A stretch of DNA of 64,000 bases from Patescibacteria group bacterium. GTDB lineage: Bacteria > Patescibacteriota > Minisyncoccia > Phycocordibacterales > UBA918. The notes beneath the pieces were generated by a model, which ran no database searches, was not told where the DNA came from, and saw only the letters and a list, made by a program, of their open reading frames with translations. Shown in pieces: positions 11,397 to 62,349 of this stretch; the first letter of the stretch is position 1, and every line of letters begins with the position of its first letter. The translations under genes and the position numbers were made by a program. The stretch lies in assembly GCA_040386275.1 (NCBI GenBank), contig JAZKFU010000009.1, forward strand, positions 22,367 through 86,366, read 5' to 3'.

Positions 11397-12182
11397 ATGA
11401 ATTCAATATTTAACTCAAAGTTAAATCAGCTGCTTATTACGTTGGTACTCGCTGGAGCAACAATCGCCTTAATTGCGTTTGCCTACAGTACCATCAAGCA
11501 GCAAAACCAATGGGGAGGGCCCATGACCATTAATGTGACCGGAAAAGGTGAAGTGATGGCAAAGCCAGATATAGCCCAGTTTTCGTTTTCCGTACGAGCA
11601 GACGGTGCTGACGCCACTGAAGCCCAAAAGAAATCAGCTGATGCTATTAATGCCGTCACCGCGTACCTAAAAGAAAACGCGATTGAAGACAAAGATATCA
11701 AAACTGAAGGCTACAACATGAACCCAAAGTATAAGTATGAGCAAAAGCCATGCCTCTACGGTTCAATTTGTCCTCCGGGTGAACAAATACCTGACGGGTT
11801 TGAAGTATTTCAAACGGTGACGGTAAAAGTTCGGGATATTCAAAAAGCTGGCACACTCTTAGGCGGCGTAGGGGATAAGGGAGCCACTGATATTTCCGGT
11901 CTTAATTTCACCATTGATGATGAGGATGCCCTTAAAGCTCAAGCGCGCGAAATGGCGATAGCCGACGCTCAAGCCAATGCGGAAAAGCTAGCCGGTAACC
12001 TCAATGTTCGGATCGTAAAAATGATGAGTTACTACGAAGATTCTCCAGCCATGCCAATGTACGGCTACGGTGGCACCATGATGGATGCACAAGCTAAAAA
12101 TGCACCAATGGCTGCCCCAGAAATTTCAGTGGGGGAGAATAAGACTGTAAGCAACGTCACCATCACCTACGAAGTTAAGTAA
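11397..12182 (+). CDS. SIMPL-domain (DUF541) protein, membrane-anchored
   Basis: N-terminal TM; INVTGKGEV..KPD.A.FSFSV and the overall DUF541 pattern. Confidence 0.7.
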   Translation: MNSIFNSKLNQLLITLVLAGATIALIAFAYSTIKQQNQWGGPMTINVTGKGEVMAKPDIAQFSFSVRADGADATEAQKKSADAINAVTAYLKENAIEDKDIKTEGYNMNPKYKYEQKPCLYGSICPPGEQIPDGFEVFQTVTVKVRDIQKAGTLLGGVGDKGATDISGLNFTIDDEDALKAQAREMAIADAQANAEKLAGNLNVRIVKMMSYYEDSPAMPMYGYGGTMMDAQAKNAPMAAPEISVGENKTVSNVTITYEVK

Positions 12183-12183
12183 G

Positions 12184-12262
12184 CAAACGAGCGTAGCGAC
12201 TATTGCGAACTTAGTTCCGAATTTGCCCCTTCCCAGGGCAAATTCCTGGAACATGTTATCGT
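12184..12262. repeat. intergenic repeat family A, copy 1 (conserved 10-bp-stem hairpin)
   Basis: aaacgagcgtagcgactattgcgaac..ccGAATTTGCCCcttcccaGGGCAAATTCctggaac..atcgttg; two further copies at 44231 and 49213. Confidence 0.8.
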
Positions 12263-12436
12263 TGAAATAAGGTCATTTTCCTTGTACTTCTTACAGAAGC
12301 TGTCTACTCATTGGCTATTTTGCTTCGTAAGCTCACAAAATAACTCAATGAGTCTTGCGAAAGTGTTTAGACACTTTCTCACCTTGTATCTACAGCAAAA
12401 TTAAACTTTTTTGACAAAAAACCACTTTAAAGAAAG

Positions 12437-12466
12437 CACCCAAGGCTTTGCCTGGGGTGTTTTCTT
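12437..12466 (+). terminator. intrinsic terminator
   Basis: cacccaagg cttt gcctggggtg ttttctt. Confidence 0.7.
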
Positions 12467-12510
12467 ATGTTTTCTACTTTTCTCTATTCAATATTCCATT
12501 TTCTAAGGCT

Positions 12511-13440: not shown

Positions 13441-13475
13441 ATTTAAGAAGTTTTAGGAAGTTGACTGAAATTAAG

Positions 13476-13509
13476 AAAACACCCCAGGCTACGCTTGGGG
13501 TGTTTTCTT
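13476..13509. terminator. bidirectional intrinsic terminator (nusG and the convergent small ORF)
   Basis: aaaacaccccaggc tacg cttggggtgttttctt. Confidence 0.75.
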
Positions 13510-13546
13510 AAATGAATATGACCCGCTGGATCATATCCATGTCGGG

Positions 13547-13845: not shown

Positions 13846-14091
13846 ATGACTCAAAAACAGAAATTAGTAGAAACTTTTCGGACCAATCCAGGCTCATTAA
13901 AGTTTAAACAGCTGGCAGCTGTACTTGAACATTATGGTTTTACCATGATTCAGGCTAAGGGCAGTCATGTAAAATTTAAACATCCAAAATTGTCTTCTGA
14001 TTTAATAATCCCAATTCATAACGGTGACTGCAAGGATTTTTATAAAAAAGAAGCATTAAAACGAGTTTCTGAAATCGAAAAAAATAAATAA
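13846..14091 (+). CDS. hicA: type II toxin HicA-family (YcfA-like mRNA interferase)
   Basis: 81 aa; LEHYGF...KGSHVKFKHP....IIPIHNG core typical of HicA. Confidence 0.7.
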   Translation: MTQKQKLVETFRTNPGSLKFKQLAAVLEHYGFTMIQAKGSHVKFKHPKLSSDLIIPIHNGDCKDFYKKEALKRVSEIEKNK

Positions 14092-14092
14092 T

Positions 14093-14407
14093 ATGGCTAC
14101 AACTTCAACTATCACCATTCAAAATAAAAAATATGAATATACTCTAAAACCTTCAAAGGAGAAGGGAGTTATTCGCTTTGTTTGCAAAGGAGCCAATATT
14201 GATCAAGACTTTCTTGCGGAAGATATTCCAACGTTAATTCTTGACTTGCCTAGACTCATTCTTGCTGAGCGAGCGTACCAGGACAATCAAACCGAAGTTG
14301 TTCGATTCCGTATCTCCTCAGAAGATAAGAAAAAAATTGAGAAAAAAGCGCTCGCTAGTGGTTTTGAGACCGTTTCTGATTATTTGCGTGCGCGAGCGCT
14401 AGCGTAG
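14093..14407 (+). CDS. hicB: cognate antitoxin (HicB-like) with a C-terminal ribbon-helix-helix
   Basis: Start 2 nt after the hicA stop; C-terminal RFRISSEDKKKIEKKALASGFETVSDYLRARAL resembles a CopG/RHH DNA-binding motif. Confidence 0.55.
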   Translation: MATTSTITIQNKKYEYTLKPSKEKGVIRFVCKGANIDQDFLAEDIPTLILDLPRLILAERAYQDNQTEVVRFRISSEDKKKIEKKALASGFETVSDYLRARALA

Positions 14408-22696: not shown

Positions 22697-23389
22697 ATGA
22701 GCACGGCAAAATTAATTGTGATTGACGGTGGAGCGAACGTGGGGAAAGCGACCCAGGCGGACATGTTAATGAATCGATTAATTGCAGAAGGGTACCAAGT
22801 CGGAAAAATTGATTTTCCACGGTACAGTCAAAACTCTATTGGGCACTTTATTCGAGAATGTTTAGACGGAGAAGAAGATAAGTTTGCTGAGCTTGATCCA
22901 CGGATTGTGGCGATGGTGTACGCGATTGATCGATTTGAATCTAAAAAACAAATTGAAGAATGGATGGAAGAAGGACGTATCATTATTTTTGACCGGTACG
23001 TGAGTTCCAACATGATGCACCAGGGTGCAAAAGTGCATGACGCCGATGCTCGTGAAGAATTCTTTTCGTGGGTGGAACATTTGGAATACGATATTTTAGG
23101 ATTGCCACGACCTGATATGACGATTTATTTGGATATTCCACCCCAGGATAGTCAAAAGTTACTAGAGTACATTGAAGACATTGGTGTGACTGTAGTTGAT
23201 CCCAAAGAAAAAGATAAACTCCACCAGGCAAAGGTTTCAAAATGTGCGAGTTATCTAGCAAACACGCACAACCAATGGGTAACAGTGCCTTGTGTGACTG
23301 ATGGGGCCTTACGTCTCCGGGAAGAAATTCACGAAGAAGTGTACACTGCGGTAAAGGCCAATATTCCAGCGCCTCACGCAACGGTATAA
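22697..23389 (+). CDS. tmk: thymidylate/deoxynucleotide kinase-family protein with an atypical P-loop
   Basis: IVIDGGANVGKATQ (Walker-A-like) and the DRY motif (IIFDRYVSSNMMHQG). Confidence 0.6.
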   Translation: MSTAKLIVIDGGANVGKATQADMLMNRLIAEGYQVGKIDFPRYSQNSIGHFIRECLDGEEDKFAELDPRIVAMVYAIDRFESKKQIEEWMEEGRIIIFDRYVSSNMMHQGAKVHDADAREEFFSWVEHLEYDILGLPRPDMTIYLDIPPQDSQKLLEYIEDIGVTVVDPKEKDKLHQAKVSKCASYLANTHNQWVTVPCVTDGALRLREEIHEEVYTAVKANIPAPHATV

Positions 23390-24814: not shown

Positions 24815-24908
24815 GCGCATTTCTGCGTTGCAGCTGCGGCAAAACTTTACTCACCGTACAAGAAGTACGGCTCGCAAACTTTTCCTTGTGCGCCTTGAAC
24901 TGCATCTA
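24815..24908. repeat. intergenic repeat family B, copy 2
   Basis: ctgcgttgcagctgcggcaaaactttactcaccgtac aagaa gtacggctcgcaaacttttccttgtgcgccttgaactgcatc. Confidence 0.75.
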
Positions 24909-28295: not shown

Positions 28296-31200
28296 ATGAA
28301 TAAACAACATGGTCGGGAAAATGACTCAGTGGCCGTTGTGCCTGAGACCGAAAAAAGTGACGTAGCAACTCGTGAAGAATTGATGCAAGCATTTTGGCTT
28401 GAGCACGATATTTTTAATAAAAGTCTGGCTACTCCAGCTGGGGATACGCCCAAAGGTAGCTACACCTTTTATGACGGTCCACCGTTTGCGACGGGCACTC
28501 CTCACTACGGGCATATTTTAGCCAGTACCATCAAAGATGCGGTGCCCCGATTTTGGACCATGAACGGTATGCGGGTAGACCGAAAGTGGGGCTGGGATTG
28601 TCATGGACTACCACTAGAGAATTTAATTGAAAAGAAACTCGGACTGGCTACTAAACGGGATATTGAAGAGTACGGCGTAAAGAATTTTAACGAAGCTGCT
28701 CGTGGTGCGGTGATGGAATATGCTGACTACTGGAAAATGGCCATTCCCCGCATGGGACGATGGGCCGACATGGAGGACGATTACAAAACCATGGACAATA
28801 CCTACACCGAAAGTGTGTGGTGGGTTTTTTCTGAATTACATAAAAAAGGATTAGTGTTTGAAGGCTTTAAAACTATGCATCTCTGTCCACGCTGTGGGAC
28901 TACGTTGAGTAATTTTGAAGTGAATCAAGGCTATAAAGATATTAAAGATATTGCCGTTACGGTTAAGTTACCGTTACTTGATGATGCTGGTAACGTTACC
29001 GATACCTCACTGTTGGTCTGGACCACGACTCCGTGGACGTTGCCGGGGAATATGGCTGCTGCTGTTCACAATGATATTCAGTATGCAAAAGTAAAAGTAA
29101 CCACAGAAACCGGAGCTGAGTTTTTTATTCTCGCTAAAGAGCGCTTGTCACAATTAGGAGATGTATCCTATATGATAGAGGAAGAACTGAAAGGATCGAC
29201 ACTGGTCGGACGTTCCTACCAGTCACCATTTACTTTTTGGCAAAACCAAGATTTTGACAAAACCAATGCCTGGAAAATTTGGCACGCGGACTATGTCGAA
29301 GTCGGGACTGAAGGCACCGGGGCAGTGCATATCGCGCCAGCGTATGGAGATGATGATATGCAGTTAGCCAAAGCCAACAACGTGCCAATCATGCACCACG
29401 TTGATACGGCCGGGCACTTTATGCCGTTGGTGACAGAATTCGCGGGACGGTTGGTAAAACCAAAAGATGACGATGCTTCGGGGATTGATCACAAAGATAC
29501 TGATATTGAAATATTAAAGTCTTTGCAAACCGCAGGCAAAATTTTCAAAAAAGAAAACATCACTCACAGCTATCCGCACTGTTGGCGCTGTGATACACCG
29601 TTACTTAACTACGCGACCACCTCGTGGTTTGTGAATGTGCCGGCAATTAAAGATGCGCTTGTAGCAAATAACGCTCAAGTACACTGGGTGCCAGAGCATG
29701 TGGGCACTAATCGCTTTGGAAAATGGCTTGAAGGAGCGAGAGATTGGGCTGTCTCGCGACAGCGGTATTGGGGAGCACCCTTGCCAATTTGGAAAAATCC
29801 TAAAACCGGTGAGTACAAAGTTTTTGGTTCGCTCGCCGAGTTGCAACAGTATATTCCGCAAACCAATAACACCTTCTTTGTGATGCGTCATGCGCAAGCG
29901 CACAGTAATCTGGGCGATGCCGTAATTGATGCGATTCCGGATGAAGAAAATCCGTTAACTGATACCGGTCGCGAGCAATGTAAAGTAGCCGCCGAGCAAT
30001 TGAAAGACGCGGGCATTACTCGCATTGTGCACTCAGGGATGCAGCGCACGCGCGAGACGGCGCTCGCTGTGGCGGCTGAGCTTGGGTTACCAGAATCAGC
30101 GGTGACGGTAGATACTCGCATTACCGAATTACAAACTGGTAACGCCTTTGAAGGGAAAACCTGGGCAGAGTACAACGCCAACTACGCGAGTGAAGAAGAA
30201 AAGTTCACCAAAGTAATTCCCGGGGTAGAAAACCGCTACGACCTTATTAAACGGGCGGGAGCATTCTTGTATGACTTTAATGCGAGTCATCAAAATGAAA
30301 CTGTCTTAGTAGTGGCGCACGCCAGTTCAACGTTTGCGTTACGGTGCGTCGCTGAAGGCGCCGATCATACCCGTGTCATTGAACTTAAAAAGGAAGGGTA
30401 CTTTGGTAATGCTGAAGTCCGTCCGTTACCGTTTACTCCGGTACCGCATAATGATAATTACGCACTTGATTACCACCGGCCGTACATTGATGAGATTGAG
30501 CTTATTGATACTGACGGTACTAAGCTTGTGCGCGTGCCCGATGTATTTGACTGTTGGTTTGAAAGTGGTTCAATGCCGTATGCGCAACATCATTTCCTCG
30601 GGGAAGGACGAGCAGACTTTGAGGGAACAAAATTCCCGGCGCAGTTTATTGCTGAAGGTCTTGATCAGACGCGCGGGTGGTTCTATTCACTGATTGTGTT
30701 AGGCACAGCCTTATTTGGAAAATCACCGTTTGAGAATGTAATAGTAAACGGGTTAGTGCTCGCGGAAGATGGAAAAAAGATGTCTAAATCTCTCAAGAAC
30801 TATCCTGACCCAATGGAGTTAGTTGATCGTGTAGGAGCGGATGCTATTCGATACTACATGCTCACCTCACCATTGATGAAAGGGGAAGATCTAAACTTTT
30901 CGGAAAAAGAAGCACTTGAGTTACAACGAAAAAATATCGGCCGGTTGCATAACGTGCTTGCTATGTACGAGATGTTTGCCGACGGCACTAAAGCCAATGC
31001 AAGTTCCGACAACATACTTGATCGTTGGATTATTACCCGACTTAATCAAATCATTTCTGAAGCCACTGCCGGATACAAAACCTACGAACTAGATAAAGCC
31101 AACCGACCAATTGCTGATTTTATTGATGATGTATCGGTCTGGTATCTTCGCAGAAGTCGAGAACGCTTAAAGGCCGATGATGAAGCTGACAAAGCTTTAC

Positions 31201-31847
31201 CCATTGGAACACTCCGCTATATCTTGCGCGAACTTGCAAAAGTCATGGCTCCCGCTATGCCATTTTATGCTGAGTATTTATATCGTGCAGTAAAAGATGA
31301 GGGAGAAGCAGAAAGTGTACACCTAACTGCTTGGCCACAAGGTGGAGAAGTAAGTACTGATCTTATCGAGAAAATGAAAGAGGTACGTATGTTTGTGACG
31401 GCTGGTCTTGAAGCTCGCACCAAAGCCAATATCAAAGTTCGCCAACCATTGTCAGAATTATTTATTCGCACAACGATGCTTCCGGATACTGAGCTACTCG
31501 ATTTAATTAAAGATGAGCTCAATGTAAAGGAGGTGAGTCTCGACGGAGTTGGGGAAGACAACAGTCCCCGCATTAAACTCATGACTGACCTCAGTCCCGA
31601 GTTGCTCGCCGAAGGAGCCGTCCGGGAAGTTATGCGGGCTGTTCAAGATATGCGTAAAGATGCCGGCCTAGAACCAAGTGACCGTATCACGCTCACGATT
31701 GATACCGACGAAAAAGGCCAGCAAGCTATTGCTGTACATCAAGACATGCTCCTCAAAACCGTCGGAGCAACAGATGTTGTATTTGAAGTAACTTTTGGAA
31801 CGAGTGTCACGAGTGGTAACTATAGTTTTATTTGTTCAATTTCGTAA
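28296..31847 (+). CDS. ileS: isoleucyl-tRNA synthetase, eukaryote-like type 2, carrying an inserted histidine-phosphatase (PGM-like) domain
   Basis: YDGPPFATGTPHYGHIL (type-2 HIGH), WTTTPWTLPGN, RDWAVSRQRYWGAPLPIW and KMSKSLKN; residues 526-712 (nt 29871-30431) carry VMRHAQAHSN, SGMQRTRETA, ELQTGNAFEGKTW and LVVAHASS, the histidine phosphatase superfamily motifs. Confidence 0.9.
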   Translation: MNKQHGRENDSVAVVPETEKSDVATREELMQAFWLEHDIFNKSLATPAGDTPKGSYTFYDGPPFATGTPHYGHILASTIKDAVPRFWTMNGMRVDRKWGWDCHGLPLENLIEKKLGLATKRDIEEYGVKNFNEAARGAVMEYADYWKMAIPRMGRWADMEDDYKTMDNTYTESVWWVFSELHKKGLVFEGFKTMHLCPRCGTTLSNFEVNQGYKDIKDIAVTVKLPLLDDAGNVTDTSLLVWTTTPWTLPGNMAAAVHNDIQYAKVKVTTETGAEFFILAKERLSQLGDVSYMIEEELKGSTLVGRSYQSPFTFWQNQDFDKTNAWKIWHADYVEVGTEGTGAVHIAPAYGDDDMQLAKANNVPIMHHVDTAGHFMPLVTEFAGRLVKPKDDDASGIDHKDTDIEILKSLQTAGKIFKKENITHSYPHCWRCDTPLLNYATTSWFVNVPAIKDALVANNAQVHWVPEHVGTNRFGKWLEGARDWAVSRQRYWGAPLPIWKNPKTGEYKVFGSLAELQQYIPQTNNTFFVMRHAQAHSNLGDAVIDAIPDEENPLTDTGREQCKVAAEQLKDAGITRIVHSGMQRTRETALAVAAELGLPESAVTVDTRITELQTGNAFEGKTWAEYNANYASEEEKFTKVIPGVENRYDLIKRAGAFLYDFNASHQNETVLVVAHASSTFALRCVAEGADHTRVIELKKEGYFGNAEVRPLPFTPVPHNDNYALDYHRPYIDEIELIDTDGTKLVRVPDVFDCWFESGSMPYAQHHFLGEGRADFEGTKFPAQFIAEGLDQTRGWFYSLIVLGTALFGKSPFENVIVNGLVLAEDGKKMSKSLKNYPDPMELVDRVGADAIRYYMLTSPLMKGEDLNFSEKEALELQRKNIGRLHNVLAMYEMFADGTKANASSDNILDRWIITRLNQIISEATAGYKTYELDKANRPIADFIDDVSVWYLRRSRERLKADDEADKALPIGTLRYILRELAKVMAPAMPFYAEYLYRAVKDEGEAESVHLTAWPQGGEVSTDLIEKMKEVRMFVTAGLEARTKANIKVRQPLSELFIRTTMLPDTELLDLIKDELNVKEVSLDGVGEDNSPRIKLMTDLSPELLAEGAVREVMRAVQDMRKDAGLEPSDRITLTIDTDEKGQQAIAVHQDMLLKTVGATDVVFEVTFGTSVTSGNYSFICSIS

Positions 31848-32085
31848 TAATGTTTGCTTTCTATCCATCTAAGTAATTAATTAGTGTGATAAAAATAGAT
31901 GAAATACAAGGCGTCCAAGAAAAAAGTTTCGAGCCATATCGCGTATATGGTGAGGAATTTTTTGCGCAGTTGGTCCAGCGATTTTCCCAAGGGAAGAAAA
32001 AATCGGGACAGAAATTCAGAATTGTCGCTACGCTCTGTTCTTTATTCCACACAGTAGGTCGCTTGTTTTAGGAAACGTACCCAGC

Positions 32086-32670
32086 ATGTCATACAACACA
32101 TACATTACTGAGGCGCTCATCTGCGGCAGCTTCGATTCCAACACTGCTGATAAATCGTACCTCCTGTTTACCAAATCGGCGGGGATGATTTATGCGTCGG
32201 CGCGCAGTGTGCGCGAAGAGCGAAGTCGTCAACGGTTTGCCTTGCAAGATTTTGGAATAGTGACCGTGTCACTTATTAAAGGGAAGACGGGGTGGCGAAT
32301 TGGGAGTGTGCAATCGGAAGGAAACTTGTTTGCAAGCGCACCTAATCGGTTGGTGCGGGGAAGTGTGGTGCGAATGTTTAAATTTCTGCGACGTTTTGCC
32401 GGTGCCGAAGAACCAGAGCCTATTATCTATGACGAATTTTGTCTTGGGCTGTCGTATCTCACAAAACCTGAAGTAGAAAATCGAACCCTGATTGAGGAGG
32501 TGTTACAAGCCCGGATGTTGTATCATTTGGGGTATATTGCCGATACCGAAGATAGTAATTTTATCTTTGAACAACCACTTCTAGTGGTAATTACGTCTGA
32601 GTTGTTGCCTCCATTGCTTCCACGATTAAAAACAATCACCGGCAATGCAACTTCGGCCAGTCATTTATAA
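32086..32670 (+). CDS. recO: RecO-like DNA repair protein (short form)
   Basis: N-terminal OB-fold pattern ..LLFTKSAGMIYASARSVREERSRQRFALQDFG resembles the RecO N-terminus; the call is weak. Confidence 0.4.
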   Translation: MSYNTYITEALICGSFDSNTADKSYLLFTKSAGMIYASARSVREERSRQRFALQDFGIVTVSLIKGKTGWRIGSVQSEGNLFASAPNRLVRGSVVRMFKFLRRFAGAEEPEPIIYDEFCLGLSYLTKPEVENRTLIEEVLQARMLYHLGYIADTEDSNFIFEQPLLVVITSELLPPLLPRLKTITGNATSASHL

Positions 32671-43171: not shown

Positions 43172-43265
43172 TCTGCTGCGTTGGGACTGCGGTAAAATTT
43201 TACTCACCGTACAAAAGGTACGGCTCGCAAAATTTTCCTTGCCCACCTTGCATATGACTCACTCT
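43172..43265. repeat. intergenic repeat family B, copy 4
   Basis: ctgcgttgggactgcggtaaaattttactcaccgtac aaaag gtacggctcgcaaaattttccttgcccaccttgcat. Confidence 0.75.
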
Positions 43266-43646: not shown

Positions 43647-44222
43647 CTACGCTTTCTCGATTCGTTCTGAGTAGTCGCCTGACTCGGTGTTAATTGAAAT
43701 CACGTCTCCTTCATTGATAAACATTGGTACCATGACGGTGGCGCCAGTTTCTACGGTTACTTGTTTAAGGGCACTACTTGAAGTGTTACCTTTAACCGCA
43801 GGCATGGCTTCGGTTACCTTAAGCTCTACTTTAATAGGAAACTTGATACCAATAATCTCTTCTTCAAATACTAACGCTTGTACGTCACTGCGTTCCTTAA
43901 GGAATTTACCGGGGTCTCCAATAAAGTCTTCGGTGAGGGCAAAGCGTTCTGCTGGCTTGCCAGCGTTATGGAACCAGTATTCACTTCCTTTGCGATAAAT
44001 GAATGTTACGTTTTTGTTTTCAAGATCAGCCTCGTCTGCTGTTTCGCTTACGTGGAAGGTTTGTTCGTACTGACGACCAGACTTCAAACCTTTAAGTTTA
44101 GTAATGTTTACCGGCTTACGTTGTTGCTTCCGAAACACGTGAGTAGCGAGCACTAAACAAGGCTCATCGTTAAAGATGATTACTTTCTTGAGGGTTATTT
44201 CGTTGTATGAGAGGACAGCCAT
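43647..44222 (-). CDS. efp: elongation factor P
   Basis: KOW-like N-terminus plus two OB domains; central ..EADLENKNVTFIYRKGSEYWFHN pattern. Confidence 0.85.
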   Translation of the reverse strand: MAVLSYNEITLKKVIIFNDEPCLVLATHVFRKQQRKPVNITKLKGLKSGRQYEQTFHVSETADEADLENKNVTFIYRKGSEYWFHNAGKPAERFALTEDFIGDPGKFLKERSDVQALVFEEEIIGIKFPIKVELKVTEAMPAVKGNTSSSALKQVTVETGATVMVPMFINEGDVISINTESGDYSERIEKA

Positions 44223-44230
44223 GAAGTGAG

Positions 44231-44320
44231 AAAACGAGCGTAGCGACTATTACGAACTTCCTTCCGAATTTGTCCCTTTCCTAGGACAAATTCCTGGAAT
44301 ATGTAATCGTTGCGTACTGC
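44231..44320. repeat. intergenic repeat family A, copy 2 (abuts the efp start codon)
   Basis: aaacgagcgtagcgactattacgaac..ccGAATTTGTCCctttcctaGGACAAATTCctggaat..atcgttg. Confidence 0.8.
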
Positions 44321-44425
44321 TCAATTAAAATGAATAATAGCGTCACATTTATACCAAAATTACCCATTAAAAGCAACGCGTGTACAGCAACCAAAGCGTT
44401 AGTTTGGTGGTATTATTAAAGAATT

Positions 44426-45016
44426 ATGCAATTGTTTGGCAATTCAGAAAACATGAGCGAACTATCTGATGAAGATATTTTACTGCGTTCCCGCGCTCAC
44501 CCCTGGCTGTTTTCAATGATTCTCGAACGCTACCAAGACGCTTTTTTCCGTAAAGCCATGGGAATTATCCATACTAAAGAGGATGCCGAAGAAATAGTAC
44601 AAGACACGTTTACCAAAATTTACCTGCATGCTGATTCCTTTAGCCCGGTTGAAGGCGCCAAATTTTCTTCGTGGGCGTACCGAATTTTAATGAACACCGC
44701 CTTTACCGCCTACCAAAAGCGCATCAAGCAAGGTGCACGCTTTCAAAATATTGATCCGGAGTTTGAACAGTTTGTGGCCGATAAATCAGGTGGGGTAGCG
44801 GCTACGGAAATTCATGACGGGGTAGAGCGCATTTTAGCTCGATTGCCGGGCCATTTCTCGAGCGTATTGCGGTTGCACTACATTGAACGCTGGAGTCACC
44901 AAGATATAGCCACCGAAACGGGTGAGGCCGTAGGGACCATAAAAGCCCGTATCCACCGAGCCAAGGCCGCCTTTCGAAAGGAAAGTACCGAACTGGAACA
45001 GCAACAATTACTGTAA
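44426..45016 (+). CDS. ECF-type RNA polymerase sigma factor (sigma-70 regions 2 and 4)
   Basis: Region 2 (EEIVQDTFTKIYLHADSF, SSWAYRILMNTAF) and region 4 HTH (IERWSHQDIATETGEAVGTIKARIHRAKAAFRK). Confidence 0.8.
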   Translation: MQLFGNSENMSELSDEDILLRSRAHPWLFSMILERYQDAFFRKAMGIIHTKEDAEEIVQDTFTKIYLHADSFSPVEGAKFSSWAYRILMNTAFTAYQKRIKQGARFQNIDPEFEQFVADKSGGVAATEIHDGVERILARLPGHFSSVLRLHYIERWSHQDIATETGEAVGTIKARIHRAKAAFRKESTELEQQQLL

Positions 45017-45403: not shown

Positions 45404-45420
45404 TACCTTATACATAACTA

Positions 45421-45454
45421 TAAAAAATCAGCCGGTAGTAGCCGGCTGATTTTT
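45421..45454. terminator. bidirectional intrinsic terminator
   Basis: aaaaaatcagccgg tagt agccggctgattttttaa. Confidence 0.8.
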
Positions 45455-45476
45455 TAATTGGATAGCGGAGTTAGAG

Positions 45477-46559
45477 TTATTTGGTTTCAGCGTGTTCAGC
45501 TTTTAGCGCTGCGCGCACGTGTTTAAGCATCTCATCTTTGAGTTTCGTATTTTCTCTAAGGAATGTTCGGGCAGCATCATAGCCTCGACCCAATTTTTCA
45601 GTAGTTGATTCATCTCCGCCGGGGGGAGTGTATGAGTATGAAGAGCCTGATTTGGTAACAAATTTATACTTTTCCCCGAGAGCAAGAATCTCACCTTCAA
45701 TCGAGATACCTTCATTATAAATAAGGTCAAACTCAGTACTCTTAAATGGAGAAGCTACTTTGTTCTTCACGACCTTAACGCGGTGGCGACCGCCGACAAT
45801 TTCTTCACCCTTTTTAATTTGGGCAATACGACGGATATCGAGACGCACTGAAGTGTAGAACTTAAGCGCCTTTCCACCGGGGGTTGTTTCAGGGTTACCA
45901 AACATAACACCAATCTGCATACGGATTTGGTTAATAAAGATAACTACCGTTTTTGATTTGGCAACAATACTCGTCAGTTTACGTAACGCCTGACTCATCA
46001 ATCGCGCCTGCTTACCCACGTGGTGGGCACCCATTTCACCCTCAATTTCATCGCGGGGAGTAAGGGCAGCTACGGAGTCGATAACAATCACGTCAATTTT
46101 ACCGGTTCTTACGAGAGACTCCACGATTTCAAGCGCTTGTTCACCGTTATCAGGTTGTGAGATTAAGAGTTCATCGAGTTTAACACCGAGGTTCTTGGCG
46201 TACTCTGGGTCCATAGCATGCTCAGCATCGATAAAGGCACAGATACCACCTAACTTTTGTGCTTCAGCAATCGCGTGTAGGGAAAGGGTAGTCTTACCAG
46301 AAGATTCTGGACCATAAATTTCAATAATACGACCGCGGGGGAATCCGCCAATTCCTAACGCTTCATCAAGACCAATCGAGCCAGTCGGGACGACATCAAT
46401 ATCAACCTTACGACTCTCGGACAAGGTCATAATCGCTTCATCACCAAATTTAGTTTTCAGTGCCCGGAGAGTTTCCGCAATATCAGCAATGCCGCCTTCT
46501 TTACTAGTAGCGGCTTCACCAACAACTTTTTTTTCTTTGGCAGCTTTTTTTGGTTTCAT
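45477..46559 (-). CDS. recA: recombinase RecA
   Basis: Walker [24 protein letters not shown] and the overall RecA core. Confidence 0.95.
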
Positions 46560-46973: not shown

Positions 46974-49196
46974 TTACATCCGATTCGTCGTATCAATGTC
47001 ATCTTCCGTATCGTCACTACCACCACCATCACTGCCGAGAATTTCCCGTGGTTTTGAACCGTCAGCCGCACCAATGACGCCGCGATCTTCAAGTAAATCA
47101 ATTAATCGAGCCGCACGCGAGTAGCCGACACGCAACTTTCGTTGAATGTATGAGGTAGAGGCCTTACCCGCTTCAATGACGGCCTGTTTAGCGTCTTCAT
47201 AGAGCTCGTCATCGTCATCACTATCGTCATCGTTAATCATGCCAATAAAGCTGTCTCCCGAACCGCCTGATTTTTCATCAAGGTTAATTGAATCAAGAGA
47301 GTGGGCACTATCTTGCATCTTGAGGTACGACACCACGTTCTTAATTTCATCTTCAGAAATAAAGGCCGCTTGCAACCGCACTGGCTTGGGGGAATCACTC
47401 GAGAGATACAACATGTCACCCTTACCAAGCAATTTTTCTGCTCCCACACCATCTAAAATGGTCCGCGAGTCAATCTGAGAGGCAACATTTAAGGCGATAC
47501 GAGTCGGGATGTTGGCTTTAATGGTACCGGTAATAACGTTTACCGATGGGCGTTGGGTCGCAAGGATAAGGTGAATACCCACCGCGCGGGACATTTGAGC
47601 CAAACGCACGATAGCCGCTTCTAGTTCCCGAGGGTAGGCATGCATAAGGTCCGCCAGCTCGTCCATCAAAATCACAATGTACGGAAGGGGTTCAGGAAGA
47701 TTAACTAATTCTTCTTCGGGTGAACCTTTAGCTTCCCACGCTTTTTTCGCTGGTTTGTATACGTTGGCGTGGTACGAGTCGAGATTCTGGATTTTTTCGG
47801 TCTGGAGAATGTCGTACCGGCGTTCCATTTCCTTGATAGCCCACTTAAGCATCATCAAGGCTTTTTTAGCTTCTACAATTACGGGCGCAAGCAAGTGTGG
47901 GATACCCTCATATAATGTAAGTTCTACGCGCTTTGGGTCCACCATAAAAAATCGCAGCTGGTCCGGTGAATTGCGGAACAAAAGAGAAATCACCAAGTTG
48001 TGCATGGTAATAGATTTTCCAGACCCAGTGGTACCGGCAACCAAGGCATGGGGCATCCGGGCAATGTTCGCAAAGTGCGCATTGCCCGTTACATCTTTCC
48101 CTAACGCTACATACAGTGGATGTGGGGAATCGGTGTATTCCGGTGTCTTAAGTAGTGACGCAAGACCAATCGTAGAACGGGTGAGGTTTGGAATTTCGAT
48201 ACCCACCAGTGACTTCCCAGGAATCGGTGCTTCGATACGTAATGTACCTGATGAGAGGTTCAACTGGAGTTCTTGTTGCAACCCGACGATACGCGCAATC
48301 TTTACCCCTTGAGCGGGCTTCAATGCATAGCGACTGATAGTCGGTCCAATCTCCACCGCATCCATTTCTACGTGAATGCCAAATTCCTTGAGGGTTCGTT
48401 TAATAATATTAGCGTTAGCTTTTACGTCACCGGTTTGTGGTTTCCCCTGATCCTTCTTTAAGAGTGAAAGTGACGGGGGAGCGTACGTTCCTGAAAACGT
48501 CGACACCACAAAATCTGCCCTCGGTGCATTCCCGAGACCGAGCTTATCGGATACTTTTTGCATGGTTGGTCGTTTTGCCACCGCTGTGGCATCGGGAGCA
48601 TTTTCCTCTTCGAGCAACTCGTCAAAATCTTCTTCAGACTCCGGACCAGTTTGCAGGACCAAGTTCTCGATATCTGATTCGTCGTCGAGAGTCTGTTCGC
48701 GTCCCATCTGTGGAAGTCGTAACCCAGTATTAAAAATGAGGAACCCAGAAATTAATATTAACCCTCCCAAAATCACTCCCGCTACCGACGCCCCAAATAA
48801 ATACGATAGGGGAGCCAAGAGCACCCACCCGACCATCCCACCCCACTCGGTTACCGAGATTTCCAAAATCCCCAAGAGTGAAATAAACAATAATCCAATA
48901 CCAGTGATCTTCGACATACTCACCTCCTCGTTATCTTTAGGATTTAACAACGCGTACACGTAAAAGGCACAGACCATGGGAGCAAGATAAGCTCCGGTTC
49001 CAAATAGCCAGTAGAGGGAAATCTGAGTCCATGACCCCACCACCCCGCCATACTCAAACAGGGCAGCTGCAAAGAAAATACCGACGGTCGTAAGTAACAC
49101 CGCCCCGATCGCTTGCCGAGCTTGGGGACTGAGGTCCTCAAAAAACGGCTTCGATTCTTTTACCTTCTCAACTTTTTTCGGTCCTCGTTTGCCCAT
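46974..49196 (-). CDS. ftsK: DNA translocase FtsK/SpoIIIE
   Basis: Four N-terminal TM helices, an acidic linker, a motor domain with Walker A GTTGSGKS, and a C-terminal gamma wHTH. Confidence 0.9.
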   Translation of the reverse strand: MGKRGPKKVEKVKESKPFFEDLSPQARQAIGAVLLTTVGIFFAAALFEYGGVVGSWTQISLYWLFGTGAYLAPMVCAFYVYALLNPKDNEEVSMSKITGIGLLFISLLGILEISVTEWGGMVGWVLLAPLSYLFGASVAGVILGGLILISGFLIFNTGLRLPQMGREQTLDDESDIENLVLQTGPESEEDFDELLEEENAPDATAVAKRPTMQKVSDKLGLGNAPRADFVVSTFSGTYAPPSLSLLKKDQGKPQTGDVKANANIIKRTLKEFGIHVEMDAVEIGPTISRYALKPAQGVKIARIVGLQQELQLNLSSGTLRIEAPIPGKSLVGIEIPNLTRSTIGLASLLKTPEYTDSPHPLYVALGKDVTGNAHFANIARMPHALVAGTTGSGKSITMHNLVISLLFRNSPDQLRFFMVDPKRVELTLYEGIPHLLAPVIVEAKKALMMLKWAIKEMERRYDILQTEKIQNLDSYHANVYKPAKKAWEAKGSPEEELVNLPEPLPYIVILMDELADLMHAYPRELEAAIVRLAQMSRAVGIHLILATQRPSVNVITGTIKANIPTRIALNVASQIDSRTILDGVGAEKLLGKGDMLYLSSDSPKPVRLQAAFISEDEIKNVVSYLKMQDSAHSLDSINLDEKSGGSGDSFIGMINDDDSDDDDELYEDAKQAVIEAGKASTSYIQRKLRVGYSRAARLIDLLEDRGVIGAADGSKPREILGSDGGGSDDTEDDIDTTNRM

Positions 49197-49212
49197 GTAG
49201 TGAAATGAAGAA

Positions 49213-49310
49213 ATGAGCGCCAGCGATTATTCTGAATTTCGTTCCGAGTTTGCCCCTTTCCCTAGGGCAAACTCCTTGAACTTGTAATCGTTGCTAGCGA
49301 CTCATTTTGT
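49213..49310. repeat. intergenic repeat family A, copy 3 (abuts the ftsK start codon)
   Basis: aaatgagcgccagcgattattctgaa..ccGAGTTTGCCCctttccctaGGGCAAACTCcttgaac..atcgttg. Confidence 0.8.
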
Positions 49311-58688: not shown

Positions 58689-58812
58689 ACTGTTTTGTCG
58701 CAAGCGCTGAGGTGGGGTCGAGAGCACTTGGCTGATTTGTGAGCTTGCGAGCAAATCTGCGTAGTGACTCGTGACAAGATTACCCTTAAATAATTTAAAA
58801 CGAAAGTATTTC

Positions 58813-58843
58813 AAAAAACACTCCCACCTGGGAGTGTTTTTTG
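58813..58843 (+). terminator. intrinsic terminator upstream of the surface-protein gene start
   Basis: aaaaaacactccc acct gggagtgttttttg. Confidence 0.75.
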
Positions 58844-58920
58844 TACTTTTAGACTCGTTTACCAGGATTTTGTCCCCAGAGTCTTCTTCGTCGGTATCTA
58901 TAAATGCTACTATTTTAGAT

Positions 58921-61900
58921 ATGACAGAAAAATTAACAGAAATAGTCGCTTTATTACAAATATTACTTTCGCTTGTGATGACGCAAGGTCAGACACTAGC
59001 TACCAATAATAATAACGGTGCTCTTTTAGGATCTACTTCAGTTGTGACTGCGACGACTACTGCGTGGACCCAAATTGCCAAAGAAGGTCAAAGGTTCACT
59101 GTTTCAGGCACACAAACGGTCCGGTATGGATATGGAACGTCATGGGTCCAAAAAACAGTGACTAATTCAGGTACTTGCTCTAATCGTTTTTTTGGAAAGG
59201 ATCCGATTGTAAATCAAGTAAAGGTGTGTCAGGTTTCTTCTACAGTTACCCCGTCAACTCCCACACCAGTAACTATCGCCACTCCGTTTAAGATTGGTGA
59301 CCGGGTGAGTATGACCGCAAACGTTAATGTTCGAACATCAGGTCTAATTTCAGCCACTACACTTATTGGTGTTAATCCACTTGGGAGTGTGGGAACGCTT
59401 ATTGCTGGTCCCACCCGATCTGCTGACGGCCTTGTTTGGTTTAACGTCAACTTCGACGCTGGCTTTGATGGGTGGGTTGGTTCAAATAACTACCGTTTAG
59501 TTACTACCTCGGTCACTCCGTTACCAACCCCAGCACCAACGCCAACCTTCACCACCACCGTCTCTGGTCTCACAGCTACTGCAGCTTTCACGTTAAGTAA
59601 TGGGTGTGAAGGGTACACCATCCTCTGGGGTGACGGTACTCAATCAGCTAAAGCAGCTTCACCATCGGGCAGTTCGTGTACCATGGCGATTGTAAATGTG
59701 TCCCAAGTCCATGCCTATGCTACCGCGGGAACCTATACGGTCACCGTTCAACGGTACAGTAGTGGTACGACTTTAAAAGATACCAGTACCCGAACGGTTA
59801 CTGTTGCTGGCTCAACTCCAGCCCCAACTCCATTGCCCGTAACTATCAACACTCCTTTTAAAATTAATGACCGGGTGAGTATGACCGCAAACGTTAACGT
59901 GCGCTCTACTGGGCTGGTATCTGCAACTACATTACTTGGAGTTAATCCTCTAGGAAGTATGGGAACCCTCGTGGCAGGTCCAACCCAATCTGCTGACGGT
60001 CTCATTTGGTTTAACGTGAATTTTGACACTGGCTTTGATGGTTGGGTGGGAGCAAATAACTACCGTTTAGTTACTACCGTTACTCCATTGCCGTCTCCAA
60101 CACCAACGCCAATTCCTGTACCAGCGCCAACACTTGTTGTGAACGCTAACCCTACGAGCGTTACTACTGGTAACACTGCTGTAATTTCTTGGTCAAGTAC
60201 TAACGCCACCGCGTGTACAGCGAGCGGCGCCTGGAGCGGTTCTCGAGCGGTGACTGGTTCATTCACGACGAGTGCTCTTAATACCACGGGCACCCAAACA
60301 TACTCCATGACCTGTACCGGTTCAGGCGGCAGTGTGACCCGTTCTGGTAGTGTGGCAGTAACCGCGGCGGCAACAGTAACTCCAACCCCAGCTCCAACTA
60401 CGCCAACAGTATTTGGTCCGCGAACCCCAAGTCCACTTTCGGTACGACAAATCCACAGTGGCCACAGCCTCACCGACGGCGGTACGTTCCAAGGTACCTA
60501 CCCGGGGCACTTCCGGAATATGATTAATAGTATCCAAGCCAATAGTGCCAATGTCGCTCAAAGTACCATTCCGGGTTCTCCGCTCCATTGGCGCTGGAAC
60601 AACGTACCGGGCTATGGTCAGCCTGATGCCCGCGGTGATATCGGTAACTATCAGTTACTTGTTATTACCGAAGGCGTGCCATTCATCTTCTCTGCCTCCA
60701 ACCCCGAGTGGACCCTTGAACACCGCACCTGGCTGCGCACCTGGGCCGAACACGCCTGGCGCAACGGTAATGGCGGCGCGGGTGCACCAACCATCTTATA
60801 CGCCACCTGGACCAACATCGATGATGCGGACGGACCGTTCCGCCAAAACCTCGATACCTACCAACCTATCTGGGAGGATATGGCTGACTACGCGTCTGCT
60901 AACCTACCTGCTCAAGCCAAGGTATACATTATTCCGGCGAACCTTTTAATGAAACGCTTCTACGATGACATTCAAGCCGGACGAGTACCGGGTATCAATA
61001 ACATTAGTGGTTTCTTCTCTGATGCCATTCACCCTAATGGCTTAGGAAGTTACGCGGTAGCGCTTCAACACCTTCTCGTGATTCACCACATTGACCCGCG
61101 CGGACTGCGGTCCACTGGTTTTGGCTTAAGTCCTGAACCTTCAGCGGCTCTGGCTAAGTACATTCAAGATACCGTGTGGGATGTGACGACGAAGTATCCA
61201 CGTAGTGGGGTGACGGCGGGGAATACAACCACCTCAACGCAAACCCCAAGTACAGTTCCAACCCCAACCCTGTCTCTGAGTGCTAACCCAACCAGTCTTA
61301 CCGCTGGTAACGCCGCTACACTGAACTGGTCAAGTACCAACGCCACCGCATGTTCTGCTGGTGGTGCATGGAGTGGATCGCGGGCGGTAAACGGTTCATT
61401 TACTACGGGTGCACTTAGTACTGTGGGTACACAAATTTTCAACCTTACGTGTACGGGAAGTGGAGGAAGTGTGAGTCGTTCTGCAAGTGTGGGTGTGACA
61501 GCGTCTACAGTAACCTCTGCGCCTACCGTTACCTCGTGTACGGTACCAACCCTGACCTTTAATCCGGCTGACTTCGACCGCGTGATTGATGGCACAGAAA
61601 TCACCAGTACATTGACCCTGGATGGATCTGCTTGGAATAATACGCTGATTAGAAATTGTCGCGTGCGTAACACCGCTGGGGATGGAATTCTTCTCCGTAA
61701 TGTGAGCAACGTGGTAATTACCGGTTGTACGTTTGAAAATATGGGCGGAAATGCGGCGGTCCGAGGGAGTTCAAGTGGCGGGACGTCAAACGTGACGCTT
61801 TATAGAAATACTGTGAATGGAACTGCTTCAAACGGTTTCCATTTTGCAGAACGAATTGCTTCGGGAGTGGATCACGTAAACTTGCGTATTATTGGCAATA

Positions 61901-62349
61901 CACTCAGTAATACGGGTCGAGCTTCGTCAGATGGTTCAACCCACGCTTTGTATATCCAAGCGCATGATTCTCTGATTACCCATAACACTATTAATGGTTC
62001 GCGCAATGGAAACGGTATCTCCGTTCGCAGTTCAGGGGAAGTGTCGTGTAATACCGTATCAGGCACTTCATCAAATGGTAAGCCAGGTATTCGCTATTAC
62101 TCAGACCATAATACTGGTTTGACCAATACCCTTATTATCAATAGAAATACCGTAAGCGGAGCAACTGAAGGAATAAATATCTATCAACCAGTCGTCAGGT
62201 ATGATGGCCAGACTGGATTAGATCACGTGGTGAAAAACTTTGTGATTACCAACAACGATGTCCGGAATAACACCAATGGTATTGGTATTGCCAGTCAGTA
62301 CAATCAATCACCGTTTACCGTGACGCAGTCAGGAAATATGACTAATTAA
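58921..62349 (+). CDS. large secreted multidomain surface protein (two SH3-like repeats, two Ig/PKD-like repeats, a central hydrolase-like domain, and a C-terminal right-handed parallel beta-helix)
   Basis: Start set at MTEKLTEIVALLQILLSLV after the terminator; internal direct DNA repeats 59281-59507/59851-60077 and 60143-60366/61280-61505; beta-helix repeats NCRVRNTAGDGILLRNVSNVVITGC... Confidence 0.55.
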   Translation: MTEKLTEIVALLQILLSLVMTQGQTLATNNNNGALLGSTSVVTATTTAWTQIAKEGQRFTVSGTQTVRYGYGTSWVQKTVTNSGTCSNRFFGKDPIVNQVKVCQVSSTVTPSTPTPVTIATPFKIGDRVSMTANVNVRTSGLISATTLIGVNPLGSVGTLIAGPTRSADGLVWFNVNFDAGFDGWVGSNNYRLVTTSVTPLPTPAPTPTFTTTVSGLTATAAFTLSNGCEGYTILWGDGTQSAKAASPSGSSCTMAIVNVSQVHAYATAGTYTVTVQRYSSGTTLKDTSTRTVTVAGSTPAPTPLPVTINTPFKINDRVSMTANVNVRSTGLVSATTLLGVNPLGSMGTLVAGPTQSADGLIWFNVNFDTGFDGWVGANNYRLVTTVTPLPSPTPTPIPVPAPTLVVNANPTSVTTGNTAVISWSSTNATACTASGAWSGSRAVTGSFTTSALNTTGTQTYSMTCTGSGGSVTRSGSVAVTAAATVTPTPAPTTPTVFGPRTPSPLSVRQIHSGHSLTDGGTFQGTYPGHFRNMINSIQANSANVAQSTIPGSPLHWRWNNVPGYGQPDARGDIGNYQLLVITEGVPFIFSASNPEWTLEHRTWLRTWAEHAWRNGNGGAGAPTILYATWTNIDDADGPFRQNLDTYQPIWEDMADYASANLPAQAKVYIIPANLLMKRFYDDIQAGRVPGINNISGFFSDAIHPNGLGSYAVALQHLLVIHHIDPRGLRSTGFGLSPEPSAALAKYIQDTVWDVTTKYPRSGVTAGNTTTSTQTPSTVPTPTLSLSANPTSLTAGNAATLNWSSTNATACSAGGAWSGSRAVNGSFTTGALSTVGTQIFNLTCTGSGGSVSRSASVGVTASTVTSAPTVTSCTVPTLTFNPADFDRVIDGTEITSTLTLDGSAWNNTLIRNCRVRNTAGDGILLRNVSNVVITGCTFENMGGNAAVRGSSSGGTSNVTLYRNTVNGTASNGFHFAERIASGVDHVNLRIIGNTLSNTGRASSDGSTHALYIQAHDSLITHNTINGSRNGNGISVRSSGEVSCNTVSGTSSNGKPGIRYYSDHNTGLTNTLIINRNTVSGATEGINIYQPVVRYDGQTGLDHVVKNFVITNNDVRNNTNGIGIASQYNQSPFTVTQSGNMTN

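Follow-up and report, generated by a model that had tools for sequence, protein, structure and literature searches.

A multi-copy family of structured intergenic repeats with a co-varying, strand-asymmetric fold in a Patescibacteria genome and its relatives

The stretch of Patescibacteria DNA analysed here (64,000 nucleotides, referred to below as the window) carries four copies of an intergenic element of about 85–110 nt. The element belongs to a multi-copy family whose members are oriented independently of transcription and replication. Each unit folds into two hairpins, and the fold is real and strand-asymmetric; conservation of the secondary structure at the level of the family is strongly supported. 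Three of the copies had been reported in a preliminary description of the window, and their places, common plus orientation and consensus sequence were all borne out, while a fourth, diverged copy on the minus strand (31966–32053) had been missed. By kind, the family is one of the bacterial structured intergenic repeats, closest to REP/REPIN elements and to MITEs of the Correia/ERIC type, though no GTAG palindrome of REP size, target-site duplication or parent IS was found, and it is absent from Rfam 15 and from the searchable literature. The reading preferred here, held with confidence that is about evenly balanced, is a REP/REPIN/MITE-like repeat, non-autonomous and folded as a single strand. 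Patescibacteria genomes are very small and streamlined, and an element of ~100 nt at such density is therefore unexpected. Its presence means either that a selfish element prospers in genomes regarded as almost devoid of mobile DNA or that these bacteria make use of an uncatalogued structured nucleic-acid signal. The copies, their parts and the genes that adjoin copies 1–3 are as follows.

11397–12182, plus strand: SIMPL-domain gene (Pfam PF04402)
12176–12264, plus strand: copy 1 (family covariance model, 99.2 bits)
12176–12213: P1 hairpin of copy 1
12214–12218 and 12248–12252: 5' and 3' strands of P2 of copy 1
12219–12245: P3 hairpin of copy 1, with the CT bulge at 12246–12247
12253–12264: tail of copy 1, ATGTTATCGTTG
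31966–32053, minus strand: copy 4 (covariance model, 70.8 bits, E 9e-14)
43647–44222, minus strand: efp, start codon CAT at 44220–44222 (Pfam)
44223–44326, plus strand: copy 2 (family covariance model, 96.1 bits)
44223–44260, 44261–44300 and 44301–44326: P1, P2/P3 and tail of copy 2, the tail ending ...GCTCAATT
44426–45016, plus strand: ECF-type sigma-70 gene (Pfam), 100 nt downstream of copy 2 on the same strand
46974–49196, minus strand: ftsK, start codon CAT at 49194–49196 (Pfam)
49202–49308, plus strand: copy 3 (family covariance model, 91.7 bits)
49202–49240, 49241–49281 and 49282–49308: P1, P2/P3 and tail of copy 3, the tail being TTGTAATCGTTGCTAGCGACTCATTTT

Copies 1–3 match the family covariance model with 92–99 bits and E values of about 1e-18 to 1e-20, and dinucleotide shuffles give an expectation of 0.00 for the degenerate stem pattern; on both grounds the copies are beyond chance. 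Genes were identified by Pfam (SIMPL, EF-P, ECF-type sigma factor, FtsK, SecE, RecA and IleRS). The ends of the copies needed correction. The real starts lie further 5' than had been described, at 12176, 44223 and 49202, and copies 2 and 3 reach 3' to about 44326 and 49308, respectively. Copy 1 had been placed directly after the SIMPL stop codon; since the conserved fold starts at 12176, the last SIMPL codons and the stop codon TAA (12180–12182) instead overlap the start of the element, within the 5' strand of P1. The reported abutment of copies 2 and 3 on the start codons of efp and ftsK, both on the opposite strand, holds with a gap of 1 nt at efp and of 5–6 nt at ftsK. Because the element overlaps start and stop codons, it also bears on gene calling and on how UTRs are interpreted in these MAGs.

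Copy 4 lies between ileS, which ends at 31847, and a gene starting at 32086, and is antisense to both. It represents a diverged subfamily with P2 GTCC/GGAC and P3 CGATTTTTTC/GGGAAAATCG that is also found in loci L086, L083 and L068. The neighbouring IleRS-like protein (28296–31847, 1183 aa) has a His_Phos_1 domain (residues 528–694) inserted between synthetase segments.

On the plus strand of the window the two hairpins of the unit, P1 followed by P2–P3, abut without a spacer. The 10-bp hairpin on which the preliminary description was centred is real, but it is merely the inner part (P3) of this larger conserved fold. P1 is a long irregular hairpin of about 17 bp that carries two tandem G.A motifs, a bulged A and a G-N-A or GNNA apex. 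At its base w-AAAU pairs with AUUU-w', and the first pair (columns 6–45) co-varies (UA 41, GC 17, AU 12). The lower tandem G.A, with UGA opposite GAA, is present in 72 of 74 copies. Above it lie two freely co-varying pairs, AA/UU, the bulged A and a y.y or G-C pair, and then the second tandem G.A (GAG...CGA) followed by G-C and C-G pairs. The apex is most commonly a G-N-A triloop, with a GNNA tetraloop where a copy has an extra nucleotide. In copies found by the model only, the upper G.A is replaced by Watson-Crick pairs (UGCCC-AAA-GGGCA, CGUC-UGAAG-GACG, GGCC-GGAAC-GGCC and AUAUCC-AAA-GGAUAU), which shows that the apparent 20-nt loop is a helix.

P2–P3 comprises 15–17 bp with an invariant CT bulge on the 3' strand between P2 and P3, and it is a strong hairpin (fold z-scores of −3.6 to −5.3). 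P2, GUUCC/GGAAC, co-varies to CUUCC/GGAAG, GUCC/GGAC and GUUCU/AGAAC. The sequence of P3 is wholly different between subfamilies, and insertions of tens of nucleotides are tolerated. The three versions of this stem given for the window, GAATTTGCCC/GGGCAAATTC, GAATTTGTCC/GGACAAATTC and GAGTTTGCCC/GGGCAAACTC, are self-complementary, as claimed. A further small repeat, ..TTATGGTCGAG...CTCTTCCTAA.., occurs inside some element copies, at the P1/P2 junction of the efp-sigma copy of L103 and in the P3 loop of L040; apparently several small repeat families nest in these genomes.

The tail that follows P2 is lineage-specific and reads yTGTAATCGTTG in the lineage of the window. Its end, in copies 2 and 3, repeats the 5' part in inverted form. 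The tail of copy 3 is an inverted repeat of the P1 part AAATGAG...AGCGATTA, and copy 3 and copy L001b of a related MAG have AAATGAG...CTCATTT and AGCGATTA/TAATCGTT as terminal inverted repeats. Before testing, pairing of the tail with the P1 apex looked convincing in the window lineage and a few others, but over 101 copies the complementarity between the tail and the 5' part was not above that of control sequence. Neither a general tail/P1-apex pseudoknot nor a general terminal inverted repeat exceeded shuffled or upstream controls (43 and 101 copies), and copies 1–3 are without compensation in the pairing AGCGAyTA/TAATCGTT of the window lineage.

Several known motifs were considered and set aside. 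Inspection by eye gave no hammerhead core, K-turn or C/D box: UGA...GAA is a symmetric tandem G.A within a helix and has no 3-nt bulge, the CUGA part belongs to a co-varying stem, and Rfam supported none of these motifs. A mini-ORF, ATG-NNN-AAA-CGA-GCG-TAG, was rejected as well, as its second codon varies as a stem partner and its stop codon is lost or moved in many copies.

The evidence for the fold comes from covariation in two alignments. In a MAFFT alignment of 74 copies, 96.8% of the cells are paired, 13 of 23 pairs show double changes, and 247 cells are compensated. The covariation score of this alignment is 0.44, compared with 0.15 in shuffles (reached in 0 of 500) and 0.05–0.10 for slid partners. 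Columns 27–50 of this alignment were fixed by the search pattern, so their invariance is uninformative; their partners, all of P3 and the 3' strand of P2 were free to vary. In a model-fitted alignment of 67 copies, which includes unconditioned ones and leans towards the model, 26 of 30 pairs are doubly changed, including all 15 pairs of P2–P3. RNAalifold independently returned the same helices. Given covariation at 26 of the 30 pairs of its consensus structure, the family could enter RNA and repeat databases.

The proposal of a structured repeat family with preserved pairing is thus upheld, by compensated double changes in both alignments, and the stems vary with compensation. The proposal had been drawn from the base changes between the three window copies, and this part requires a different reading. 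Pairing is kept across the family by two-sided changes, but the differences between the window copies are not compensatory evolution in situ. Paralogous copies are closer to each other than orthologous ones and the efp copy is only ~78% identical to that of L001, hence the window copies are samples of variants that were already self-complementary.

Two features identify the strand that folds. G.T outnumbers A.C by 41:11 in one count and by 53:25 (p=0.002) in another, and the terminal pair of P1 adds 21 G.T and 0 A.C. The G.A/G.A motifs are kept in 72 of 74 and in 54 of 66 copies, and on the opposite strand the two motifs read C.T/T.C. The G.T excess and the G.A motifs indicate that the plus strand of the window is the strand under structural selection. 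Nearest-neighbour energies gave no separation of the two strands.

The extent of the family was determined in three ways. A scan of species-representative genomes with a pattern conditioned on the flanks only gave the Patescibacteria MAG L001 and the two Kaiserbacteria MAGs L003 and L007, with copies at orthologous efp and ftsK sites. A second scan, of metagenome contigs, was conditioned only on the 5' half (AGCGAYTATTNNGAAYTTNNTTCC) and gave at least 120 loci, nearly all of which are true members. A covariance model, R1, was built from relatives and run over the listed loci; it found at least 161 copies in at least about 115 metagenome or MAG loci, many of them outside the search pattern. Besides the four copies in the 64-kb window, there are up to five in 14 kb (L057) and four in L046. 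Among the model matches in the listed loci, copies occur in mixed orientations, and some are tandem or truncated. Taxon labels met with are Patescibacteria, Kaiserbacteria and Paceibacteria; those of close protein homologues are Patescibacteria, Kaiserbacteria, Paceibacterota, Pacebacteria and Nomurabacteria, from which the family belongs to a Kaiserbacteria-like part of the class Paceibacteria. As judged by the sample names of the contigs, the habitats are groundwater, lake, saline and marine; L009 and L051 stem from assemblies of the Hainich aquifer.

Comparison with Rfam 15, which the preliminary description had proposed, gave no family at the gathering threshold or at E≤10. No match to the element was found in phage and plasmid records or in IMG/VR contigs, and a search of the accessible literature by sequence string and by topic found no description of the family.

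Copies have been gained, lost and replaced between close relatives and homogenised within genomes, as comparison of the aligned loci shows. Copy 1 is absent from the SIMPL-secE spacer in three relatives with 83–86% SIMPL identity, in which another repeat sits there. As the relatives carry a different repeat at its site, the exact ends of copy 1 and any duplications cannot be read, and the spacer was rejected as a clean empty site. L030 and L122 have no element in the efp-sigma spacer, and a copy that L007 carries after recA is missing from the window and from L001.

Replacement is seen at efp. Between the window and L001, 4-fold sites are 82–88% identical and the spacer beside the element is identical at 92 of 93 positions, but the efp copy of the window differs from its L001 orthologue at about one position in five (about 78% identity). 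Such divergence beside a nearly identical spacer is as expected if the element was replaced by another copy. Identity is also higher between paralogues than between orthologues (L001a–L001b 92%, W_c1–W_c2 86%, W_c2–L001a 79%). Between the window and L007 the element is ~80% identical, while 4-fold sites are saturated at 34–49%.

The repeat that occupies the SIMPL-secE spacer of the three relatives belongs to a second, unrelated family, with the sequence CTGCGTTGC..CTGCGGyAAAAyTTTaCTCACCGTAC....GTACGGCTCGCAAA.TTTTCCTTG. The window has two copies of it (24823–24897 and 43176–43250, 85% identical), and others lie in L129 (3795–3900), L130, L132 and L020. It has no Rfam match at the gathering threshold.

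At the L007 recA junction (L007 5790–6000, compared with window 45404–45510) the last ten recA codons occur twice, flanking the element copy, as a diverged duplicate of ~30 nt, with TTTAAA microhomology. The downstream recA remnant encodes the same peptide as the window recA, and the functional upstream copy is more diverged. The junction suggests that foreign DNA was imported, with homology as the anchor on one side and the TTTAAA microhomology on the other.

With respect to the flanking genes, copies with ORFs within 400 nt on both sides in the listed loci are sense-tandem in 28 cases, antisense-tandem in 22, divergent in 20 and convergent in 5. Relative to the majority gene strand, the orientations of the element in the listed loci split 31:34. 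Copy quality does not differ between sense and antisense copies (p=0.85). Of the listed loci, 39 have a positive and 39 a negative GC skew on the element strand, and a replication-linked function of the element as ssDNA was rejected on this basis.

The element frequently begins flush with a gene end: in at least 11 cases column 7 immediately follows a same-strand stop codon, and in at least 12 an opposite-strand start codon lies 1 nt away. Genes whose start codons adjoin the 5' end of the element are efp, ftsK, recR, rpsS and map. Among the spacers, efp<-[element]->sigma holds a copy most often, in 11 of 13 listed loci, with EF-P identity down to 37%. More than one locus has a copy at each of the ftsK, recR, rpsS, rpsR, rplL, glyS and thrS sites, and the recR site holds both orientations of the element in different lineages. 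In L057, a 14-kb ribosomal-protein/secY/adk/map cluster has five copies in both orientations, one abutting the start codon of rpsS and one directly following the stop codon of secY; evidently, as judged from this arrangement, the element does not block expression of the essential cluster.

At efp, a −10-like motif, TGGTATAAAT (efp strand, by eye), is conserved with and without the element and lies beyond it. Thus the element appears to have entered between promoter and start codon of efp, where it presumably lies antisense in the 5' UTR and is transcribed. A block of ~50 nt between copy 2 and the sigma gene (44340–44395; CATTTATACCAAAATTACCCATTAAAAGCAACGCGTGTACAGCAAC) is nearly unchanged in L007, and its part ATTTATACC occurs also in lineages without the element. 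This block is probably the efp promoter, perhaps together with regulatory sequence of the sigma gene.

Of the three functions that the preliminary description had offered, a 5'-UTR or terminator module finds no support in these data. The position of copy 1 after a gene, that of copies 2 and 3 in leader regions and the low z-scores of P2–P3 would suit a 5'-UTR element that acts in cis or an intrinsic terminator of adjacent genes. However, no T-run follows the hairpin on either strand; CTGGAAC and the variable tail are found there instead, and canonical terminators occur elsewhere in the window (e.g. 12430–12467). Orientation is random, without a constant sense position upstream of regulated genes, antisense copies are equally preserved, and the five copies of the ribosomal-protein cluster point both ways. 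Together, the random orientation, the intact antisense copies and the missing T-run leave such a role unsupported, and it is considered most improbable.

A regulatory module at the level of DNA, either an outward-facing promoter or a site for a host DNA-binding protein, is suggested by the start codons (efp, ftsK, recR, rpsS and map) that adjoin the 5' end of the element and by divergent spacers being occupied four times as often as convergent ones (20 versus 5). For a promoter in particular, the antisense of the P1 3' strand, AATAGT/AATAAT, resembles a −10 box 23–30 nt upstream of the abutting starts, and most genes here have −10-like TATACT/TATAGT boxes 0–25 nt from the ATG. The AATAGT box, however, was fixed by the search pattern and varies in model-only copies (e.g. 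ACAATT in copy 4), and the conserved promoter-like motif of efp lies beyond the element. Many copies follow stop codons or lie between convergent genes, and neither stem covariation nor the G.T/G.A asymmetry is expected of a double-stranded site or promoter. This explanation is regarded as quite improbable. An ECF-type promoter for the adjacent sigma factor, GGAAC-N16-CGT, was also rejected, as the spacing is not constant and GGAAC forms part of the co-varying P2 stem.

The element may alternatively be a functional structured RNA of the plus strand. It could be a family of independently transcribed small RNAs, or a module for protein binding, processing or stabilisation that acts wherever it is read in sense, with the antisense copies as tolerated by-products. 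The stems co-vary while the two tandem G.A, the bulged A and the CT bulge stay conserved, some copies have GNRA-type apex loops, and the long extensions of P3 resemble those of RNA families. Conservation of the element is well above neutral, and deeply diverged lineages still carry it at the efp-sigma, rpsS, recR and ftsK spacers. Against this, there is no orientation preference relative to the flanking genes, antisense copies are equally intact, and the promoter suggested for efp would put the element antisense in the mRNA. In ~14 of 74 copies an opposite-strand start codon abuts the 5' end, so that a plus-strand promoter would fall inside coding sequence; an upstream promoter motif was not seen, no motif being conserved beyond about 6 nt upstream of the element. 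The commonest apex, the G-N-A triloop, is more typical of stable DNA mini-hairpins, and no Rfam family matches. On balance, a plus-strand RNA function is thought fairly unlikely, though far from negligible.

A bolder reading, judged unlikely, sees in the element a new class of functional single-stranded nucleic-acid element in Paceibacteria rather than a passive repeat, either an independent structured RNA with dozens of copies per streamlined genome or an RNA-mobilised, SINE-like retroelement. The RNA could be a protein-recruiting or processing module. The irregular rod with its two G.A motifs would be the surface that is recognised. Truncation of copies at the 5' end, tandem arrays and a strand-specific fold combined with random insertion orientation are compatible with this reading but are not proof of it. 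A SINE-like polarity of truncation was looked for; ~12 distinct copies are 5'-truncated and ~6 are 3'-truncated, a difference that is suggestive only. Breakpoints of the truncated copies in the listed loci cluster near hairpin apexes.

The REP-like structured repeat is the best fit among the three functions offered earlier. Gain, loss, conversion and homogenisation of copies, combined with a strand-specific fold, point to a non-autonomous, structure-dependent repeat. In this reading, the fold would be needed for the propagation or maintenance of the element itself as a single-stranded intermediate, either ssDNA or RNA, and would be recognised by a putative structure-specific enzyme. Copies would land in, or convert, permissive spacers beside gene ends, and from then on would be passive passengers of UTRs and intercistronic transcripts, whichever way they point, as in the antisense case at efp. 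The prevalence of G-N-A triloops and tandem sheared G.A would fit DNA mini-hairpins of the d(GCGNAGC) type, which are very stable.

REP/REPIN/BIME elements are mobilised by RAYT, a Y1 HUH transposase. Like them, the element is extragenic and multi-copy, is an imperfect palindrome defined by structure and working as a single strand, lacks a target duplication, forms a population of variants within a genome and persists for long in a lineage. REPs differ in being single palindromes of 20–40 nt with a 5' GTAG, often in inverted pairs, whereas the element consists of two dissimilar hairpins with tandem G.A over 85–110 nt. The GTAG in the element is incidental, lying within GCGTAGCG (a GCG-T-AGC apex variant), and many copies have GCAAG, GTCAG and others instead. 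There is no sequence similarity to REPs and no RAYT gene among the 50 window ORFs.

The MITEs Correia/NEMIS of Neisseria, ERIC/IRU of enterobacteria, RUP/BOX of Streptococcus and RPE of Rickettsia are likewise non-coding long-hairpin repeats of ~100 nt that occupy gene-adjacent spacers in either orientation, are co-transcribed with their neighbours and are present or absent between strains. In contrast to these, a target-site duplication was not found for the element, terminal inverted repeats are confined to some lineages (that of the window has AAATGAG...CTCATTT), and no parent IS was found, long versions holding only extended hairpins or other small repeats. The stem covariation is also far richer than expected of recent copies.

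With the PATEs derived from IS200/IS605 and with integron attC sites the element shares a folded single strand, structure that prevails over sequence and conserved extrahelical or mismatched bases. It differs from IS200/IS605 in having no replication-orientation bias (GC skew 39:39). By eye it has no R''(RYYYAAC)/R'(GTTRRRY) core sites of attC, its ends being wAAATGA... and ...CTGGAAC; there are no cassette arrays and no integrase, and single copies are dispersed among core housekeeping genes. Co-varying helices, conserved non-canonical positions and stems of variable length are shared with the cis-regulatory and small RNAs of Rfam, from which the element is set apart by the lack of a family match and of a consistent position or orientation relative to a regulated gene.

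Several points weigh against a non-autonomous repeat. No transposase, integrase, RT or HUH domain was found in the 50 ORFs of the window, all of which are housekeeping, and no recurrent cluster of mobilising proteins was evident by eye among 883 neighbouring ORFs, few clusters of which are annotated. The possibility that the element is a fragment of an IS terminal repeat, which the preliminary description had named as one that would count against it, found no support, as no IS terminal repeat or transposase was detected. No consistent flanking direct repeat indicative of target-site duplication was found, and the sole clean presence/absence case, that of recA in L007, shows the diverged duplication of ~30 nt and not a short one. 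Moreover, the same spacers (efp-sigma, ftsK, recR and rpsS) are occupied across lineages in which EF-P is 37% identical. This occupancy, and ~80% identity of the element at neutral saturation, could reflect a host function rather than selfish persistence.

Other features of the window were noted in the course of the analysis. Most genes are without a Shine-Dalgarno sequence and have a −10-like TATACT/TATAGT/TACAGT box 0–25 nt before the start codon (e.g. at 22697, 22253, 18002, 26506, 36607 and 45477–46559), which suggests very short or absent leaders in this organism. The palindrome AAGAAAnCACCCnAGGCT..GCyTGGGGTGTTTTCTTA occurs at 12430–12467 and 13473–13510 (87% identical), where it flanks secE-nusG; the two palindromes look like bidirectional intrinsic terminators. 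The nusG-rplK interval (13846–14407) holds a HicA-like ORF (13846–14091, by eye) and a NikA-like ORF (14093–14407, Pfam), and in relatives it holds a Zeta-toxin gene with a NikA-like one. Finally, direct repeats of 254–269 nt that are 70–80% identical lie at 59255–61503, inside the gene for a 1192-aa beta-helix protein (58771–62349).
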